From: Candidatus Hydrogenedentota bacterium
GTDB lineage: Bacteria; Hydrogenedentota; Hydrogenedentia; Hydrogenedentales; GCA-2746185
Length of the DNA: 19,104 nucleotides
Direction: 5' to 3'
Assembly (NCBI GenBank): GCA_046583315.1
Contig: JAYGCN010000246.1
Span: 1 to 19,104, forward strand
In this document: positions 1,241 through 9,679 of the stretch, piece after piece
Layout of the letters: every line of letters begins with the position of its first letter
Position numbering within the stretch: the first letter of the stretch is position 1
Position numbers and translations under genes: made by a program
The notes under the pieces: generated by a model
What the model saw: only the letters and a program-made list of their open reading frames with translations
What the model was told of the DNA's origin: nothing
Databases searched by the model: none

Positions 1241-1284
1241 GTCAAGATTAGTCGATCGAGTGTGCATAAAGGCCCTTTATAATA

Positions 1285-1369: not shown

Positions 1370-3136
1370 ATGAGCAATGAACTTACAAAAGATCTACCGA
1401 AGAAAAAGAAGCTGACCCCCGTTGAGGGCTTCAAAGAAAACAGTCGAGGCCTCAGCGGATCCATCGTCACGGATCTGGGCGAAGATGTCGATCATTTCCA
1501 GGAAGAATCCATCCAACTCCTGAAACATCACGGCACCTATCAGCAGGACAATCGTGAAACCCGCAAGGAACGCAAAGCGGCTGGTCTCGGCAAAGATTAT
1601 TCGATGATGATCCGCACGAAATTCCCAGGCGGCCATCTCACGGCTGAGCAATACCTCATCTGTGACGACCTCTCGAAGAAATACGGCAGCAACGATCTAC
1701 GTGCGACTTCACGCCAATGCTTCCAATTTCGCGGCGTGGTCAAAGGTAACCTGCGCGGACTGCTTCACGATCTCAATCATCTTGCTCAGGTCACCTCCAT
1801 GGGTGCATGCGGCGATGTCGTGCGTAACACGATGGCCTCACCGGTAGCGGACTTCGACCCGGCCTACGAGAATCTCGGCGTAGACCTGCAAGCGCTTGCG
1901 AAAACGATAAGCGATCATTTTTTGCCAGAAACAACCGCCTATTACGATCTCTGGCTCGACGATAAAAAGGCAACCGTACACGAAAACGATACGGTCACCT
2001 TTGACGGCGAAGCCATCGCGCCTGATGAGCCCATTTACGGCAAGACCTATCTGCCCCGTAAATTTAAAATCGGACTCGCCACCGACTTCGATAATTCCGT
2101 CGATGTCTACACTCAAGACGTCGGCATCGTCGCCGTGACTGAAAATGGCGTGGCCGTCGGATTCGAGGTCATCGCAGGCGGCGGACTCGGTTACAGCCAC
2201 GGTCGCTCCGGCGCAACCTATGCACGCTCCGGCTCCCCCATCGCCTACGTCCAGGAAGACGACATCATTCCGCTCATCGAAGCCATCGTGAAAGTACAAC
2301 GCGACTTCGGCGATCGCACCAATCGTAAACACGCGCGTCTCAAATACACGATTGACGACCTTGGATTGGACGTCTTCCGCGCCAAAGTGGAAGAATACGC
2401 CGGCCGCAAATTCGATGCACCAAAAGGCGACATCGACTGCACGAATCAACCGGGCTTCCTCGGCTGGCACAAGCAAACCAACGGCAAGAATTACCTCGGA
2501 GTATGGGTCGAAAACGGCCGCATCATGGATGTAGATGGCAAATGGCAATTCAAAACTGGACTGCGCGCCATCATCGAGAAATACAAGCCCGGCATCCGTC
2601 TCACACCGATGAGCAAGGTTCTACTGACCGATATCCACGACGCAGACAAGGCCGATATCGATGCCATGCTCGGTGAATACGGCATCCCCACCAGCGACAC
2701 CGTCAGCCCCCTGCGTAGTCGTGAGATGGCGTGCCCCGCATTGCCCATGTGTCCGCTCGCAACCTCCGAAGCCGAGCGGTGCCTGCCCGACATCATGGCC
2801 CAACTCGAAGACATGGGCCACGGCGATGCCGACGTGATTGTGCGCATGAGCGGATGTCCCAATGGATGCCCGCGCCCCGTGTCCGCCGAAATCGGAATCG
2901 TCGGCAAAGGCACGAATCAGTATTGCTTCCACGTCGGAAGCAACAAAGGTTCGCGATTTAACGACAAACTATACGAGGTCGTCCGTACCGAGCAACTCGC
3001 CCCGGTGATGGACGTGCTCTTCACCGAATGGAAATCAAAACGTAGCGACGCTCAGAGCTTCGGCGACTGGTCCCACGACACAGGACTCGATGCCTTACGC
3101 GAACTGGTCGACGCAAGTGGTGCACTCAGTGACTAA
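1370..3136 (+). CDS. cysI: Assimilatory sulfite reductase hemoprotein (siroheme/4Fe-4S; CysI/Sir family)
   Basis: Motifs LLKHHGTYQQDNR, GACGDVVRN, YGKTYLPRKFKI, RKHARLKY, and the cofactor cysteines MACPALPMC and RMSGCPNGC. GGAG upstream of ATG 1370. Confidence 0.93.
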   Translation: MSNELTKDLPKKKKLTPVEGFKENSRGLSGSIVTDLGEDVDHFQEESIQLLKHHGTYQQDNRETRKERKAAGLGKDYSMMIRTKFPGGHLTAEQYLICDDLSKKYGSNDLRATSRQCFQFRGVVKGNLRGLLHDLNHLAQVTSMGACGDVVRNTMASPVADFDPAYENLGVDLQALAKTISDHFLPETTAYYDLWLDDKKATVHENDTVTFDGEAIAPDEPIYGKTYLPRKFKIGLATDFDNSVDVYTQDVGIVAVTENGVAVGFEVIAGGGLGYSHGRSGATYARSGSPIAYVQEDDIIPLIEAIVKVQRDFGDRTNRKHARLKYTIDDLGLDVFRAKVEEYAGRKFDAPKGDIDCTNQPGFLGWHKQTNGKNYLGVWVENGRIMDVDGKWQFKTGLRAIIEKYKPGIRLTPMSKVLLTDIHDADKADIDAMLGEYGIPTSDTVSPLRSREMACPALPMCPLATSEAERCLPDIMAQLEDMGHGDADVIVRMSGCPNGCPRPVSAEIGIVGKGTNQYCFHVGSNKGSRFNDKLYEVVRTEQLAPVMDVLFTEWKSKRSDAQSFGDWSHDTGLDALRELVDASGALSD

Positions 3137-3170
3137 TTCACGAACTGACATAGCGAATCCAAAGGAAACC

Positions 3171-3902
3171 TTGCTCGCGCAGGACCCTGCGTTGCTCGAA
3201 GAACTCAACGCCATGCCCGCCGAAGATCTCATTCGCTGGGCCTGGGACAACTTCGGCGATCGCGTCGGCATCATCACCAGCTTCCAGGACACCGGCTGTG
3301 TCATGATCGATATGGCGAGTCGAGTGGCTCCGGGTATGCGCGTGTTGACCATTGATACACTTCGTCTACATCCAGAGACCTACGCGCTAATGAACGAAAT
3401 CGAAAGTAAATACAATCTCGCAATTGAACACTACCGACCCGATACGGATCGTCTGAAACGCATGGTTGCCCAACACGGCGAGTTCCTCTTCTTCGACAGC
3501 AAAGCCAAACAGGAATACTGCTGCCAGATTCGCAAAGTAGAGCCCAACATCCGTGCACTGCAAACCATCGACGTGTGGATTACCGGTCTGCGCCAGGACC
3601 ATTCAGACAGCCGAAGTGATACGCCCAAGGCGCAGTACTCCGAGAACGAGTGGAACACCCTGCTCAAACTCGCGCCCCTCGCCGATTGGAATACCGAGCA
3701 GACGCAAGTCTACGTCGATGAAAAAGGTGTTCCGAAAAACGCGCTCTACGACCAAGGTTACACTTCCATCGGTTGCCATACCTGCTCTACGCCCACCCTG
3801 CCGCACGAAGGCAAACGCGCGGGACGCTGGCGCTGGTTCAATTCGATGGACCCTGATGCCGATAAAGAATGCGGTATCCACAACGAAGGCGGCGGCATTT
3901 AG
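3171..3902 (+). CDS. cysH: Adenosine 5'-phosphosulfate (APS)/PAPS reductase, 4Fe-4S APS-reductase type
   Basis: Motifs TSFQ, IDTLRLHPETY, CC (EYCCQIRKVEP), WITGLR, SIGCHTC, RAGRW and C-terminal ECGIH. Start placed at TTG 3171 after AAGGA; the ORF-track start at 3090 overlaps cysI. Confidence 0.92.
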   Translation: MLAQDPALLEELNAMPAEDLIRWAWDNFGDRVGIITSFQDTGCVMIDMASRVAPGMRVLTIDTLRLHPETYALMNEIESKYNLAIEHYRPDTDRLKRMVAQHGEFLFFDSKAKQEYCCQIRKVEPNIRALQTIDVWITGLRQDHSDSRSDTPKAQYSENEWNTLLKLAPLADWNTEQTQVYVDEKGVPKNALYDQGYTSIGCHTCSTPTLPHEGKRAGRWRWFNSMDPDADKECGIHNEGGGI

Positions 3903-6264: not shown

Positions 6265-6933
6265 TTAGCTTCCAATTTTGATAACGAATACAGCGCGTCG
6301 ATTCTGTGCGCGATTCGAATCTGAGCTGTTCGGTACCGCCGGTGAGGATTCACCTTTACTGACAGCACTCACACGGCTGGCGGCGATGCCTTGGTCGATA
6401 AGCGCATCGGCTACCGAATCGGCACGACGTTGTCCGAGTTTCGTATTGTAATCGGGGTCGCCAGAACCGTTCAGGTCGCAGGTGTGTCCTTCGACAGTGA
6501 CGGTATCGCCACTATTCTGTTTGAGCATGGCCGTAACCTTGCCAACTTCCGCCGTACCAGAACTTTTCAGCGTGGACTTGTCAAAATCGAAGAGTACACT
6601 GTTAAAGACCGGAATGCTGCGTTCTACTTTTGGTGCTGGAGGAGCCGGTGGCGGGGCTGGCGGGGCTGGTGGTGCTGGCGGAGCCGGGGGGGTATACATG
6701 TTATAGACAACCCCACGGTTGCCCCACAATTCTGAGTCGTTGACATTGGACTCGGGTACGGTGGGCCACCACCAGTAACCAGAATAGCGATCACTCTTGA
6801 CAGGACCCGCGGTGGCCCCTGTGTTTCCGAACCAGGACAGGTCGTCCATAGAGCTTGCTGCCGATGCGCCTGGCGAGACAAGCAATGTCACTGTAAATGC
6901 GACAAGAAGTCCCCCTAGAATTAGCTTTTTCAT
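6265..6933 (-). CDS. Secreted OmpA-C-like peptidoglycan-binding protein with a Pro/Ala linker
   Basis: Sec signal (MKKLILGG...GASA), OmpA_C motifs VLFDFDKSTL, VEGHTCD, YNTKLGQRRADSV, KGE and NRR. AGAGGAG RBS. Confidence 0.9.
   Translation of the reverse strand: MKKLILGGLLVAFTVTLLVSPGASAASSMDDLSWFGNTGATAGPVKSDRYSGYWWWPTVPESNVNDSELWGNRGVVYNMYTPPAPPAPPAPPAPPPAPPAPKVERSIPVFNSVLFDFDKSTLKSSGTAEVGKVTAMLKQNSGDTVTVEGHTCDLNGSGDPDYNTKLGQRRADSVADALIDQGIAASRVSAVSKGESSPAVPNSSDSNRAQNRRAVFVIKIGS
6631..6692 (-). repeat. Coding low-complexity (PPA)n linker
   Basis: Translates to PPAPPAPPAPPAPPPAPPAP. Confidence 0.85.
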
Positions 6934-7108: not shown

Positions 7109-7146
7109 AAAAAAAAGCTCCCCGAACCTAATGTTCGGGGAGCTTT
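7109..7146 (-). terminator. Rho-independent terminator after the sigma region-4-like gene
   Basis: AAAGCTCCCCGAAC/GTTCGGGGAGCTTT stem with an 8-U tract on the minus strand, just after the stop at 7154. Confidence 0.88.
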
Positions 7147-7153
7147 CTCTAAT

Positions 7154-7570
7154 TTAGGCAGCCGTGCTCAAGCGTGACCGAAGAGCATCGAAAGCCGTTT
7201 CAATGGTTTCGTCGTTCTCCTTGTCAATCACCTTGCGCAATTTTGGTATCGCGCCGCCGACTTTTTTGCCTCCACGCACCGTTCCGAAGAGGTGACGGCT
7301 AACGGTTGACTGGGTCAAATCCAGGATAGTAGCGATATCTTCCTGGGTTTTTCCGTAGAGGTAGTATAGCTTGACGACCTCCATCTGGCGTTGCGTCAAC
7401 TTTGAATCCAGTAAATCCAGCACAACTGGTTTTACTTCGGTGAAGAAGTTCGAAAAAGCATCACGCCTTTCTCTGTCTTCGTCGCTTTCAAACCACAGCG
7501 CACGTTCAGCCGGGAGATTCTCCAAGTATCCTGATTCCGCCGAAACTTCCCAAAAGTCCGAATTGTACAT
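7154..7570 (-). CDS. Stand-alone sigma70 region-4-like helix-turn-helix protein (138 aa)
   Basis: LTQRQMEVVKLYYLYGKTQEDIATILDLTQSTVSRHL is a typical region-4 HTH. Strong AAAGGAGGTG RBS before ATG 7570. No recognisable region 2. Confidence 0.82.
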   Translation of the reverse strand: MYNSDFWEVSAESGYLENLPAERALWFESDEDRERRDAFSNFFTEVKPVVLDLLDSKLTQRQMEVVKLYYLYGKTQEDIATILDLTQSTVSRHLFGTVRGGKKVGGAIPKLRKVIDKENDETIETAFDALRSRLSTAA

Positions 7571-7799
7571 TGCTGTCACCTCCTTTCAAGAGATCTGTGT
7601 TTTCCCAGCAGGCAAAGTCCGCTTTCGTTAGTTCTCGACCAGCCCGATTCACCTTGAGGCCGAGCGTCCCGCGTGTACGGGAAAAGCGCTTCGGGTCTGT
7701 TGGCACCACATGGGCCGGTTTCACTACCTTCGAACGATTCGCGCACCACAGGGCGACGAAACCGTTCATGAGGGTCGCTCGTTTGGTTGCTGTAAACAT
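7506..7799 (-). CDS. Small basic hypothetical ORF / possible second uORF
   Basis: AAAGGAG RBS 7 nt before ATG 7799. The ORF runs over the RBS and start of the region-4 gene in another frame. No recognisable domain. Confidence 0.35.
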   Translation of the reverse strand: MFTATKRATLMNGFVALWCANRSKVVKPAHVVPTDPKRFSRTRGTLGLKVNRAGRELTKADFACWENTDLLKGGDSNVQFGLLGSFGGIRILGESPG

Positions 7800-7853: not shown

Positions 7854-7895
7854 AAAAAAAAGCCGCCGGTGGATTTTGCTAATCCACCGGCGGCC
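7854..7895 (-). terminator. Attenuator-type intrinsic terminator in the 5' leader
   Basis: Perfect 14-bp stem GCCGCCGGTGGATT/AATCCACCGGCGGC, 5-nt loop and 8 U on the minus strand. No large gene lies upstream on this strand before the promoter. Confidence 0.88.
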
Positions 7896-7925
7896 TGGTT
7901 TGCCGTTTTATGTGAGGTAACCCTT

Positions 7926-8096
7926 TTAGTTGGGTAATCCCTCCATCGGTGGAGAAGTCGTGAGCCAGATTCGATGTGTTAGCACCGTGCCCATCGGTTT
8001 GGGCATCGTCACGAGGCGTTTAGCATCCACAAGGGCGCAGATACAGTTCGCCCGCGAGGCGTATGCATTACTAAATCGCTGGTGCGTGATTTGCAT
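7926..8096 (-). CDS. Putative leader peptide (56 aa, MQITHQ...RIWLTTSPPMEGLPN)
   Basis: TAAGGA RBS before ATG 8096. It lies between a sigma70 promoter and a terminator about 30 nt past its stop. Confidence 0.55.
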   Translation of the reverse strand: MQITHQRFSNAYASRANCICALVDAKRLVTMPKPMGTVLTHRIWLTTSPPMEGLPN

Positions 8097-8166
8097 GTCT
8101 GCTTTCCTTATGGTTTTCCGCATCGAAATGCAGATTGGCTTCGTTTGGGTAGAACTTTATCGCGAG

Positions 8167-8195
8167 AGCATAACAGAAACGGGGTCATCTAGCAA
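8167..8195 (-). promoter_or_regulatory. Putative sigma70 promoter of the leader/region-4 transcript
   Basis: Minus strand TTGCTA-17 bp-TATGCT with an extended TG. The predicted TSS is near 8160. Confidence 0.6.
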
Positions 8196-8286
8196 CCAAT
8201 TTGTTGGTTTCGATGAACGATTCTGCACGTTGTCGTTATCTCTTGTAGGGAGTATGCGCACTTTTTCGTGTCGAGCGATTATTTTT

Positions 8287-8357
8287 TGTCAATTATTTTT
8301 CGGACATTTTTGTACAAATTGACGCATGATGTACAAAATTGTGAACAAAAATGTACA
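8287..8357. promoter_or_regulatory. Putative upstream activator sequence array (TGT-N12-ACA / TGTACA repeats)
   Basis: TGTACA at 8311, 8330 and 8352. Overlapping TGT-N12-ACA at 8330-8347 and 8340-8357, and TGTC-N12-GACA at 8287-8306. The array lies 75-145 bp upstream of a sigma54 motif. Confidence 0.55.
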
Positions 8358-8431
8358 CGATGGCAGTCATTTCAAACCAGTGCTCCAAGAACCGCCCCAA
8401 TAGCAGGGACGTTTGTGTTTATTGGTGATCG

Positions 8432-8447
8432 TGGCACGGGAATTGCG
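8432..8447 (+). promoter_or_regulatory. Sigma54 (-24/-12) promoter
   Basis: TGGCACGGGAATTGCG matches the TGGCAC-N5-TTGC consensus, about 35 bp before ATG 8483. Confidence 0.85.
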
Positions 8448-8482: not shown

Positions 8483-9679
8483 ATGAGTACCACCACTGTT
8501 GAGCCAACAAGTCTGAAACAAGTCCTCTCTGGAAAGGAACTATCGATGTTGCCATCAGACGCTCAGCCGCTTCATGTACTGGTTGTTGACGATGAGAATG
8601 GTCCACGCCAGGCACTGCGGATGTTATTGAAGGAAACGTACACGGTTCACATAGTTGAGGGTGCCTTGGAAGCATTAAAGGCGCTTGAGGAATTCCCGAT
8701 TGGGGTGGTCGTCAGTGACATTCGCATGCCCAAGATCTCGGGTGTGGAGTTGTTGCAGATGATCCAGCAACGGTACCCGAATATTCAGGTCATTATTGTA
8801 ACGGGTTATGGTGAATTGGATACGGCCATGAAAGCCGTTGAATATGGCGCCTATGCTTATCTGGAAAAACCCTACGACGCGGATAAAATGTTGAACATTG
8901 TCGCATCGGCCTATGGAAAGTTCACGGAAGAACGGGAGCGACGCGCATTGGAAGATTTGGCTCTTGAAGCGAGTCGTTTTGAGACCTTGGGACGTTTGGT
9001 GTCGGGCACAATGCACGATCTTGGAACGCCATTAACCGTGCTCAACAGCCACCTAGAAATACTCTCCATGAATCCACACCGTGATGACATCGCCAAACGT
9101 GTGGAGACGATGCGCTCGCAAGTGGCCTATTGCTCAGAACTTACGAGAAGCACGATGGATTATTTGCGCCATGACAAAGGTGTACACGGCCCACTGAATC
9201 TCAATGCTGTTGTCGAAGAAACCATGGCCGTTGCCAATCCGTATCTTCGAGAGACTTCGGTTGAGTGCCAGCTGGACCTGGATGCAAGTCTTCCTGAAAT
9301 TTATGGAGAGATCGCGTTGCTACGGCAGTCCATTATGAACTTGATGAATAACGCTTGCCAGGCGATGCTTGAGCAGAAGGAAGATCGCATTCTTCATGTG
9401 CGCAGCTACTTGACAGAAGATCGCGTGTGCCTTGAAATCGAAGATAGGGGTCCGGGAATTCCGGAAACATTACGGAATCGGATTTTTGAAATGTTTTATT
9501 CAACGAAGGGGGAAAAGGGAACCGGTCTTGGCCTGGGGGTTGTCTCCAACGTGATGCGACGCTGCGGGGGTAGCGTCGATCTCGTTGATGGGCAGCATGG
9601 CACAGGCGCGTGTTTCCGACTTCAGTTTCCTGCTCGGGGGTTGTCTGAGCAGGGGGATGGAGTGGCTTTGGCGCAATAA
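8483..9679 (+). CDS. Cytoplasmic hybrid response-regulator receiver / histidine kinase
   Basis: REC domain (VVDDE, SDIRMP, IVTGY, EKP), HisKA H-box MHDLGTPL, and HATPase N/G1/F/G2 boxes (NLMNNACQA, DRGPGI, IFEMFYSTK, GTGLGL). AAGGAG RBS. Confidence 0.92.
   Translation: MSTTTVEPTSLKQVLSGKELSMLPSDAQPLHVLVVDDENGPRQALRMLLKETYTVHIVEGALEALKALEEFPIGVVVSDIRMPKISGVELLQMIQQRYPNIQVIIVTGYGELDTAMKAVEYGAYAYLEKPYDADKMLNIVASAYGKFTEERERRALEDLALEASRFETLGRLVSGTMHDLGTPLTVLNSHLEILSMNPHRDDIAKRVETMRSQVAYCSELTRSTMDYLRHDKGVHGPLNLNAVVEETMAVANPYLRETSVECQLDLDASLPEIYGEIALLRQSIMNLMNNACQAMLEQKEDRILHVRSYLTEDRVCLEIEDRGPGIPETLRNRIFEMFYSTKGEKGTGLGLGVVSNVMRRCGGSVDLVDGQHGTGACFRLQFPARGLSEQGDGVALAQ

Follow-up and report, generated by a model that had tools for sequence, protein, structure and literature searches.

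The locus and its genes

The window, i.e. the whole stretch of DNA that was analysed (19,104 nucleotides; contig JAYGCN010000246.1 of the Candidatus Hydrogenedentota assembly GCA_046583315.1), carries on its minus strand a small gene for a sigma-70 region-4-like protein, which is predicted to form a monocistronic unit with terminators on both sides and is preceded by a leader with two upstream ORFs. The features that are referred to below are:

8253..8266, minus strand: box AAAAAGTGCGCATA (consensus AAAGTRYGCATA), conserved; candidate binding site of the region-4 protein, with presumed autoregulation
8167..8195, minus strand: sigma-70-type promoter of the leader (TTGCTA at 8195-8190, TATGCT at 8172-8167)
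8105..8109, minus strand: ribosome-binding site of uORF1, AAGGA, identified from the sequence
7926..8096, minus strand: uORF1, putative 56-aa sensor leader, the geometry of which is shared by relatives
7943..7953, minus strand: 5' strand of the predicted antiterminator, codons S-P-P-M in the window (pairing, covariation and folding simulation)
7914..7943, minus strand: hairpin covering the stop codon of uORF1 (folding)
7854..7896, minus strand: intrinsic terminator with 8 U, GCCGCCGG in the window, family core GCCGCAGG...CCTGCGGC
7506..7799, minus strand: uORF2, with its own ribosome-binding site at 7813-7807, in the -1 frame and overlapping the region-4 gene at its start
7586-7577, minus strand: strong ribosome-binding site of the region-4 gene, identified from the sequence
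7154..7570, minus strand: gene for the stand-alone sigma-70 region-4-like HTH protein, 138 aa (PF04545, E 8.5e-11)
7109..7146, minus strand: terminator hairpin and U tract after the region-4 gene, from the sequence, the hairpin being listed on the plus strand
1255..1268, plus strand: box copy; the sulfite reductase gene (1370-3136) follows at a distance of 115 nt and is a candidate regulon member in the window

The Pfam models matched by the protein are Sigma70_r4 and other HTH models, with no match to WhiB, and its single non-conserved profile match was to TIGR02937 only. The predicted structure (pLDDT 59.7) gave weak fold matches with sigma region-4 structures on top, none of them at E 0.001, and in a profile comparison with RpoD of the same genome just 35 columns were aligned (probability 2.6). 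The gene was matched in 86 of the 135 genomes of the phylum, almost always as one copy; at E 1e-20 it was found in none of the 23 genomes of family f11 and none of the 10 of family f13. Members of family f13 have a divergent paralog-like region-4 protein with another recognition helix and without the box (L620:1374-1824 and L621:1332-1860), directly followed by a shikimate-kinase-like ORF (named by eye), and the family was scored as gene-lacking despite these weak matches. Two sigma region-2 matches, G000:C220:10425-10628 and C259:2853-3044, contain an in-frame TAG and are possibly broken ECF genes or assembly errors.

Among the neighbouring genes, an OmpA-family protein with a long Pro-Ala linker is encoded immediately downstream of the region-4 unit (6265-6933, minus strand; syntenic in 40 of 75 loci). 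On the other side a divergent response regulator/histidine kinase gene (8486-9679; response regulator gene syntenic in 51 of 75 loci) is preceded by a sigma-54-type promoter, TGGCAC-N5-TTGC, at 8432-8446 (plus strand), with a similar motif in 38 of 81 relatives. Repeated TGTACA-containing sites upstream of this promoter (8308-8360) may bind an enhancer protein.

The leader in the window

A first-pass annotation had proposed a ribosome-dependent attenuator at 7854..8195 (minus strand), and all the features that it named are present at the positions claimed, i.e. the promoter with a 17-nt spacer, the AAGGA motif at 8109-8105, the 56-aa ORF (8096-7926) ending in RIWLTTSPPMEGLPN, an antiterminator pairing between 7953-7943 and 7893-7883 (10 of 11 positions, one of them G-U, and one A-C mismatch), a local hairpin at 7954-7941 (-4.4 kcal/mol), a third hairpin at 7943-7914 whose loop contains the stop codon (-10.3 kcal/mol), and the terminator (7896-7860, -30.6 kcal/mol, 8 U). 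The leader promoter is absent from the four sites listed in our consensus promoter scan of the window, and the hairpin over the stop codon was not seen as a conserved feature in those relatives that were inspected by eye. As to a separate promoter driving the gene from between the terminator and the gene, which the same annotation had raised as one of the findings that would speak against its proposal, the consensus scan detected none that could do so. The sole match in this interval, 7589-7562, was rejected because its -10 element lies inside the coding sequence and thus cannot drive the gene.

No known RNA family was found over the leader in the Rfam comparison that the annotation had recommended; the covariance models gave no relevant match in the window, with a single miRNA match (E 0.72) elsewhere in it. 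A metabolite riboswitch or T-box acting independently of translation would be in keeping with the strong overall folding of the leader, which in the window beats 100 of 100 shuffled sequences (z -4.9). Against such an RNA stand the absence of an Rfam match and of any conserved aptamer-like sequence upstream, together with an ORF geometry that is kept in 81 of 82 loci compared with 14% by chance, and we find this explanation hardly credible.

From the metatranscriptome a single 154-nt contig covers 7950-8103, which fits a short leader transcript; the region-4 gene was uncovered, and this counts as no evidence in either direction. The antiterminator duplex of the window has a predicted energy of -17.9 kcal/mol, a value that 160 of 1060 random tiles (36 nt) from the window equalled when paired with the same terminator arm. 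Judged from this genome alone the pairing is thus not special, and the case for an attenuator beyond chance therefore rests on the relatives.

Conservation of the attenuator in Ca. Hydrogenedentota

The comparison comprised 86 loci of the region-4 gene in Ca. Hydrogenedentota (55 after dereplication). The terminator, recognised by its core GCCGCAGG...CCTGCGGC and its U tract, is present in 82 of these; two of the other four had too little upstream DNA, a third gave no match, and the match in the fourth was mis-anchored and was discarded. In 81 of the 82 terminator loci a leader ORF of 28-66 aa (median 41) ends 26-41 nt ahead of the terminator core, compared with 14% for shuffled leaders, and a sigma-70-like promoter precedes uORF1 in 49 of the 55 dereplicated loci (3 on the antisense strand; 6.3 expected from shuffling). 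The order of the elements, i.e. box, sigma-70 promoter, uORF1, terminator, uORF2 over the start, gene and terminator, is kept across the phylum.

Of the two kinds of conservation that the first-pass annotation had suggested looking for in homologs, covariation between leader and terminator arm was found, whereas a conserved C-terminus of the leader peptide was not, the frames differing between sister loci. For the 55 dereplicated loci the 3' end of the leader pairs with its own terminator arm/loop at -23.6 kcal/mol and with the arms of other loci at -18.4 kcal/mol, an advantage that was reached in 0 of 100,000 permutations and that three control windows lacked. One core pair of the antiterminator, as counted in the predicted duplexes, is A-U in 35 loci, G-C in nine, G-U in one and C-G in one, the last being this window.

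The effect of a ribosome on uORF1 was simulated by masking its footprint and calculating, for each P-site position, the energy with which the terminator arm is sequestered. In these simulations the arm is held by approximately 15 kcal/mol when the P site is at least 13 codons ahead of the stop codon, and by approximately 5 kcal/mol once it has reached the last 9-10 codons; the switch point of the window lies between W and L of HRIWL. The geometry proposed at the outset, with a ribosome at S-P-P-M favouring termination and an earlier stall favouring read-through, is borne out by the simulations. The comparative data (terminator, ORF geometry, promoter and covariation) exclude mere chance as an explanation, and we consider the leader very probably to be a ribosome-controlled transcription attenuator, as predicted from these sequence comparisons.

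The uORF1 peptide and the sensed signal

The peptide encoded by uORF1 evolves without constraint at the protein level. Among 16 sister pairs its codons show 39 silent and 111 replacement changes, compared with 536 silent and 170 replacement changes in the region-4 gene. In agreement with the first-pass remark that the leader has no amino-acid run, no conserved run was detected (median 15 different residues), unlike the cognate codons of the permissive zone in classical attenuators of the trp/his/thr type. Ahead of the switch point uORF1 of the window contains 19 of the 20 amino acids, Glu being the missing one. The composition of the permissive zone is biased: W, H and M are present in 46, 53 and 47 of 55 leaders (18, 32 and 29 expected from the proteome), and D and E in 16 and 15 (46 and 47 expected). 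The enrichment of Cys in uORF1 is no higher than in alternative frames. By analogy, this composition fits a broad sensor of the supply of charged tRNA.

The first-pass annotation had taken the Ser-Pro-Pro codons as the sensed feature, i.e. as an EF-P-dependent or RAPP-like pause, and this we regard as very improbable. Pro-Pro does occur at the antiterminator in the window and its close relatives L002 and L594, as well as in several leaders of the Latescibacterota type. Yet in the phylum it is present in just 10 of the 81 leaders, PPP in none, and RAPP-like motifs in 0 of 81 uORF1 and 0 of 74 uORF2 sequences. Moreover, Pro-Pro lies in the non-permissive zone, where a pause would promote termination rather than read-through, and sister loci (L062 vs L076 and L030 vs L081) translate the antiterminator in different frames. 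This argument on frames is based on direct inspection of the sister loci and not on automatic counts (48/23/10), which are only indicative since the automatic anchor of the antiterminator was misplaced in some loci. Pro codons arise in any case from the C-rich strand that pairs with the G-rich arm; Pro-Pro in the leader is incidental. The accompanying suggestion was that the signal may be translation stress rather than an amino acid; uORF2, the upstream box and the candidate regulon (see below), which that annotation had overlooked, speak for a leader that mainly senses the supply of amino acids.

A second ORF over the start of the gene

In 74 of the 82 loci an ORF in the -1 frame overlaps the start codon region of the gene, while the other two frames have such an ORF in four and two loci. 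It shows no more signs of selection as a protein than uORF1 does (57 silent and 179 replacement codons in 14 sister pairs), which rules it out as a conserved protein or sigma partner. A +1 frameshift fusion of uORF2 with the gene is unlikely because the gene retains its own start and ribosome-binding site, and folding did not reveal a hairpin that hides this ribosome-binding site (z -0.19). The likeliest role of uORF2 would be that of a second, translational gate, operating through occlusion by ribosomes and eased by stalling upstream; translational coupling is the alternative.

The upstream box and a candidate regulon

In 72 of 81 loci the box AAAGTRYGCATA precedes the leader promoter, at a distance that varies and no more than 300 nt from uORF1. 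Its columns are near-invariant, and the 45 nt further upstream are unconserved. For a search of the window's genome, genes were called crudely (3809 ORFs) and a first matrix was trained solely on boxes that precede the region-4 gene. It gave a strong site within 200 nt upstream of 26 genes. Twelve of these best sites precede hisS, hisF, hisB, aroQ and the genes for threonine dehydratase, aspartate kinase and dapB, as well as argD, a PLP aminotransferase gene, ilvB, leuS and metG, and the remaining 14 lie upstream of other or unknown genes. At least 11 amino-acid targets among 26 would have a probability of 1e-10 to 1e-7 under a baseline of 3-6%, which was assumed and not measured.

A second matrix was trained also on argD and ilvB sites from other genomes and is therefore circular for these two genes. 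With it, 67 sense and 34 antisense sites were found upstream of 3574 genes, compared with 32 sense and 9 antisense sites upstream of starts at the strictest cut-off. Additional targets were pheS, proB, ilvA, hom, dapA, a metB-like gene and the sulfite reductase gene of the window; the latter is followed by a PAPS-reductase-like ORF (by eye), and the two (1370-3902) are a candidate cysteine-synthesis target of the box at 1255-1268. Amino-acid targets, as classified by eye, make up 19 of the 67 sense sites, 3 of the 34 antisense sites and 2 of the 32 sites obtained with the reversed matrix (Fisher p 0.003). Two of the strongest sites in this genome precede genes for proteins of 91 and 322 aa without a Pfam or NCBIfam match (L174, G000:C285, and L173, G000:C289), which may be as yet unrecognised members of the response.

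When other genomes were examined, the core RYGCATR was present within 200 nt of argD in 22 of 26 genomes that have the region-4 gene and within 200 nt of ilvB in 22 of 33 such genomes, and in 0 of 9 gene-lacking genomes for either; G000 was omitted from these counts, as were two genomes that are incomplete. A tree built from three genes puts the gene-lacking genomes at three separate points, and a profile search of five of them gave no match in three and only the divergent paralog-like protein in two. In one of them, G043, 11 of 12 exact sites lie within ORFs, and in another, G044, no exact site was found ahead of any amino-acid gene. G024 has the region-4 gene and lacks the box at ilvB and argD; its exact sites precede the genes for aspartate kinase, a MATE pump, citrate synthase and lon. 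The exact sites of G028 precede lysA, hflX, rtcB and a DinB gene.

The data do not support leuS (3 of 21 genomes), dapB (6 of 24), aroQ (2 of 14) and lysC (7 of 34) as phylum-wide targets, the counts being near the antisense background (4, 3, 2 and 2, respectively), nor do they support hflX, the box of which is inconsistent among genomes. Genome-wide, the exact 12-mer is in no excess over the reversed control in most of 94 genomes. G055 has 17 exact sites, none of them upstream of an amino-acid gene and most within a repeated intergenic element that contains AAAGTGTGCATA and is found on many contigs (L330-L344); it looks like a mobile element or repeat rather than a regulon. The distribution of the box, among genomes that as kin are non-independent, suggests a regulon with a small conserved core and lineage-specific members.

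A second subfamily with another helix and another box

Beyond the phylum, a profile search gave 170 clusters at E 1e-10. From metagenomes 80 loci were compared, of which 71 distinct proteins were parsed and 57 had at least 330 nt of upstream DNA. All 11 loci with a recognition helix ending in SRHL carry the first box and none the second, whereas the first box is present in 0 of the other 46, of which 22 have a second box, AAAAGTGCATCC, followed by GTGTA. A short uORF is present at 20 of these 22. Relatives of this second subfamily are labelled Latescibacterota, Handelsmanbacteria, Gemmatimonadota and Zixibacteria, with a near Atlas cluster that is mostly Poribacteria. Here too leader and terminator covary (-27.2 vs -22.6, 0 of 20,000 permutations; 13 of 18 loci), and the strand ahead of the terminator can pair with the ribosome-binding site of the gene, possibly giving another route to a second gate.

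A subgroup with the second box (L574, L586, L598 and L568) has a short leader with a hairpin at the ribosome-binding site and, by eye, no U-tract terminator, suggesting that these loci may use translational attenuation only. Homologs in which the helix, where parsed, ends in QQSVSEHL (L540, L543, L547, L560, L565, L581, L590 and L596) are without box or leader and sit directly behind a conserved long gene, suggesting a different, possibly operon-linked role. It is mainly the joint change of recognition helix and box that leads us to think that the region-4 protein reads the box itself; the two appear to have changed together in two lineages only, whose members are, as kin, non-independent.

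A proposed circuit and rival explanations

On balance we consider it probable, by a modest measure, that the locus encodes a regulator of general amino-acid control which activates itself and is gated by the stalling of ribosomes, where binding, activation and signal are what we infer. When translation is fast the ribosome would occupy the last ~10 codons of uORF1 and block the antiterminator, so that the terminator forms, while a stall anywhere in the first ~30 codons, which are rich in W, H, M, V, R and T and poor in D and E, would give read-through. The trigger would be ribosomes that stall for want of charged tRNA. Ribosomes translating uORF2 would sweep across the ribosome-binding site of the gene unless stalled, which is likely to constitute the translational gate. 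Once made, the region-4 protein would likely amplify itself via the upstream box and induce ilvB and argD and, depending on the lineage, also lys, thr, his, aro, met and tRNA-ligase genes.

A variant retains both the attenuator and the regulon, but has the protein supply region 4 to a split or appropriated sigma factor by docking on the beta flap of RNA polymerase, which would make the box a promoter element and not an activator site; we judge it unlikely, though to be taken seriously. It would account for a protein that consists of region 4 only, for the many target boxes that lie 48-63 nt from the start codon and leave no space for another promoter, for TAT 13-16 nt past the box in 18 of 24 argD sites, and for the constant spacing of GTGTA from the box at the autoregulatory site. 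It also has a precedent in Tn916 Sig7-8, placed under an attenuator in the portion of the report available (10.64898/2026.10.01.756105). The predicted complex with the beta flap of G001 (0.35, the best control scoring 0.00; agreement between runs of 47% or more, pLDDT of 64 or more) may lend it weak support; like complexes have already been solved, and passes with a score of 0.60 or below comprised 18 of 157 solved complexes and both mismatches that passed. On the other hand, a region-2-like partner is not adjacent, the unit being monocistronic and uORF2 unconserved as a protein, and there is no convincing region-2-only gene among the 34 Pfam region-2 matches of the genome. The downstream element varies by target, with a GTGTA-like sequence at 2 of the 26 sites here, and the locus itself has a separate sigma-70 promoter after the box. 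These same 34 region-2 matches also provide sigma factors that could read such a box, and the link between protein and box is purely correlative (two lineages, three losses). The attenuator could thus be real and the box read by another, co-distributed regulator or sigma factor, with the region-4 gene as one target with another job; that the box is strongest and most conserved ahead of the region-4 gene, follows the recognition helix, does not precede homologs with the QQSVSEHL helix and is missing at argD and ilvB wherever the region-4 gene was not found makes this distinctly unlikely.

Of what the circuit senses and in which direction it acts, two further accounts were considered. If it mainly senses ribosome-targeting antibiotics or general translation stress, in the manner of the WhiB7 resistome, the amino-acid genes would be side targets: a sequence-independent leader would respond to any stall, and boxes precede MATE, GNAT, EamA and methyltransferase genes (here and in G024) as well as hflX and rtcB (G028). 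This we hold to be quite unlikely, as argD and ilvB are the most consistent targets tested, hflX is inconsistent, and the leader is biased towards rare amino acids and against D and E. That the region-4 protein represses the genes with a box, with uORF2 inverting the output of the attenuator, is improbable; the boxes do overlap likely promoter regions and their core is partly palindromic, but read-through upon stalling would then boost a repressor of biosynthesis during starvation, and the sites are biased in strand (32 sense vs 9 antisense at the strictest cut-off). It is for this switch logic and strand bias that activation is preferred to repression.

The amino-acid-control circuit can be put in more general terms, for which we see the chances as evenly balanced: in several uncultured phyla a stand-alone, self-amplifying region-4 protein, gated by a leader whose two uORFs sample almost every amino acid, would direct the polymerase to amino-acid, tRNA-ligase and ribosome-rescue promoters, possibly by docking on it as a partial sigma factor, and the circuit would be a convergently evolved bacterial counterpart of Gcn4/ATF4 that replaces attenuators for each operon. 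If true, a function, binding site and regulon can be assigned to a widespread and unannotated family of region-4-only proteins, and a second independent origin of a stall-sensing regulator circuit is added, together with an overlapping out-of-frame uORF as a possible gate. Beyond the attenuator, uORF2, the upstream box with its candidate regulon, and the Latescibacterota-type subfamily with another helix and box are new. A literature search returned no publication on this system, and Latescibacter- was named in none of those listed; most subscription papers fell outside its scope.

Comparison with known systems

In most bacteria that have been studied amino-acid genes are controlled operon by operon. 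The classical trp, thr, his and ilv attenuators have an antiterminator in the 3' end of the leader ORF, an A/C-rich spacer and a G+C terminator with a U tract, all of which are shared by the leader described here; it differs in that there is no run of a single codon and in that a regulator is controlled instead of a biosynthetic operon. The main known example of a regulator of many amino-acid pathways placed behind a single stall-sensing leader is WhiB7, for which the metabolic output shown is narrow (aspC).

The whiB7/wblC system of Actinobacteria, as far as it is described in the sections of the study available (10.1101/2023.06.02.543512), likewise has a small transcription factor that is gated by a uORF of variable sequence together with an antiterminator and an intrinsic terminator. 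There, stalling leads to read-through and the protein exerts positive feedback on its own promoter, many amino acids give a response that tracks the amino-acid content of the whiB7 uORF, and an aminotransferase is controlled (10.1101/2023.06.02.543512). Uses of uORFs in response to multiple stresses have already been described for toiL and whiB7, according to an excerpt of PMC12121999. A putative counterpart of the own-promoter site is the box that precedes the promoter here, which covaries with the recognition helix and which the protein may bind so as to activate its own gene. The present system is different in having a sigma region-4 HTH without a WhiB match, another box and a second, overlapping uORF, in candidate targets that span many amino-acid pathways and tRNA ligases, and in its hosts, i.e. 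Hydrogenedentota and lineages of the Latescibacterota type. It thus works like whiB7/wblC yet is no member of it, the proteins being unrelated.

The RAPP/SecM arrest peptides share with the leader a short upstream ORF with, in this genome, Pro-Pro near its end. The RAPP motif is defined in the accessible text of PMC12526060 as R-A/G-P/G-P; here there is no such motif, no conservation of the peptide, and the downstream gene does not encode secretion machinery. The split sigma factors Sig7-8 of Tn916 and SigO-RsoA offer a further comparison; there, a region-4-only protein of ~140 aa stands behind a ribosome-stalling attenuator with a positive feedback promoter, as given in part of the report (10.64898/2026.10.01.756105). 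In contrast to Sig7-8/SigO-RsoA, the region-4 gene described here has no adjacent region-2-like partner, is chromosomal and single-copy, and has metabolic candidate targets.

In eukaryotes, uORF2 of ATF4 overlaps the start out of frame, and both Gcn4 and ATF4 induce amino-acid genes. For ATF4, uORF1 is stimulatory and uORF2 inhibitory, as stated in the available extract of PMC5972666. By analogy only, the locus described here resembles Gcn4/ATF4 in that a two-uORF leader gates a regulator; there is no homology, and where Gcn4/ATF4 depend on scanning and reinitiation, this leader would operate through transcription attenuation and, probably, ribosome occlusion.
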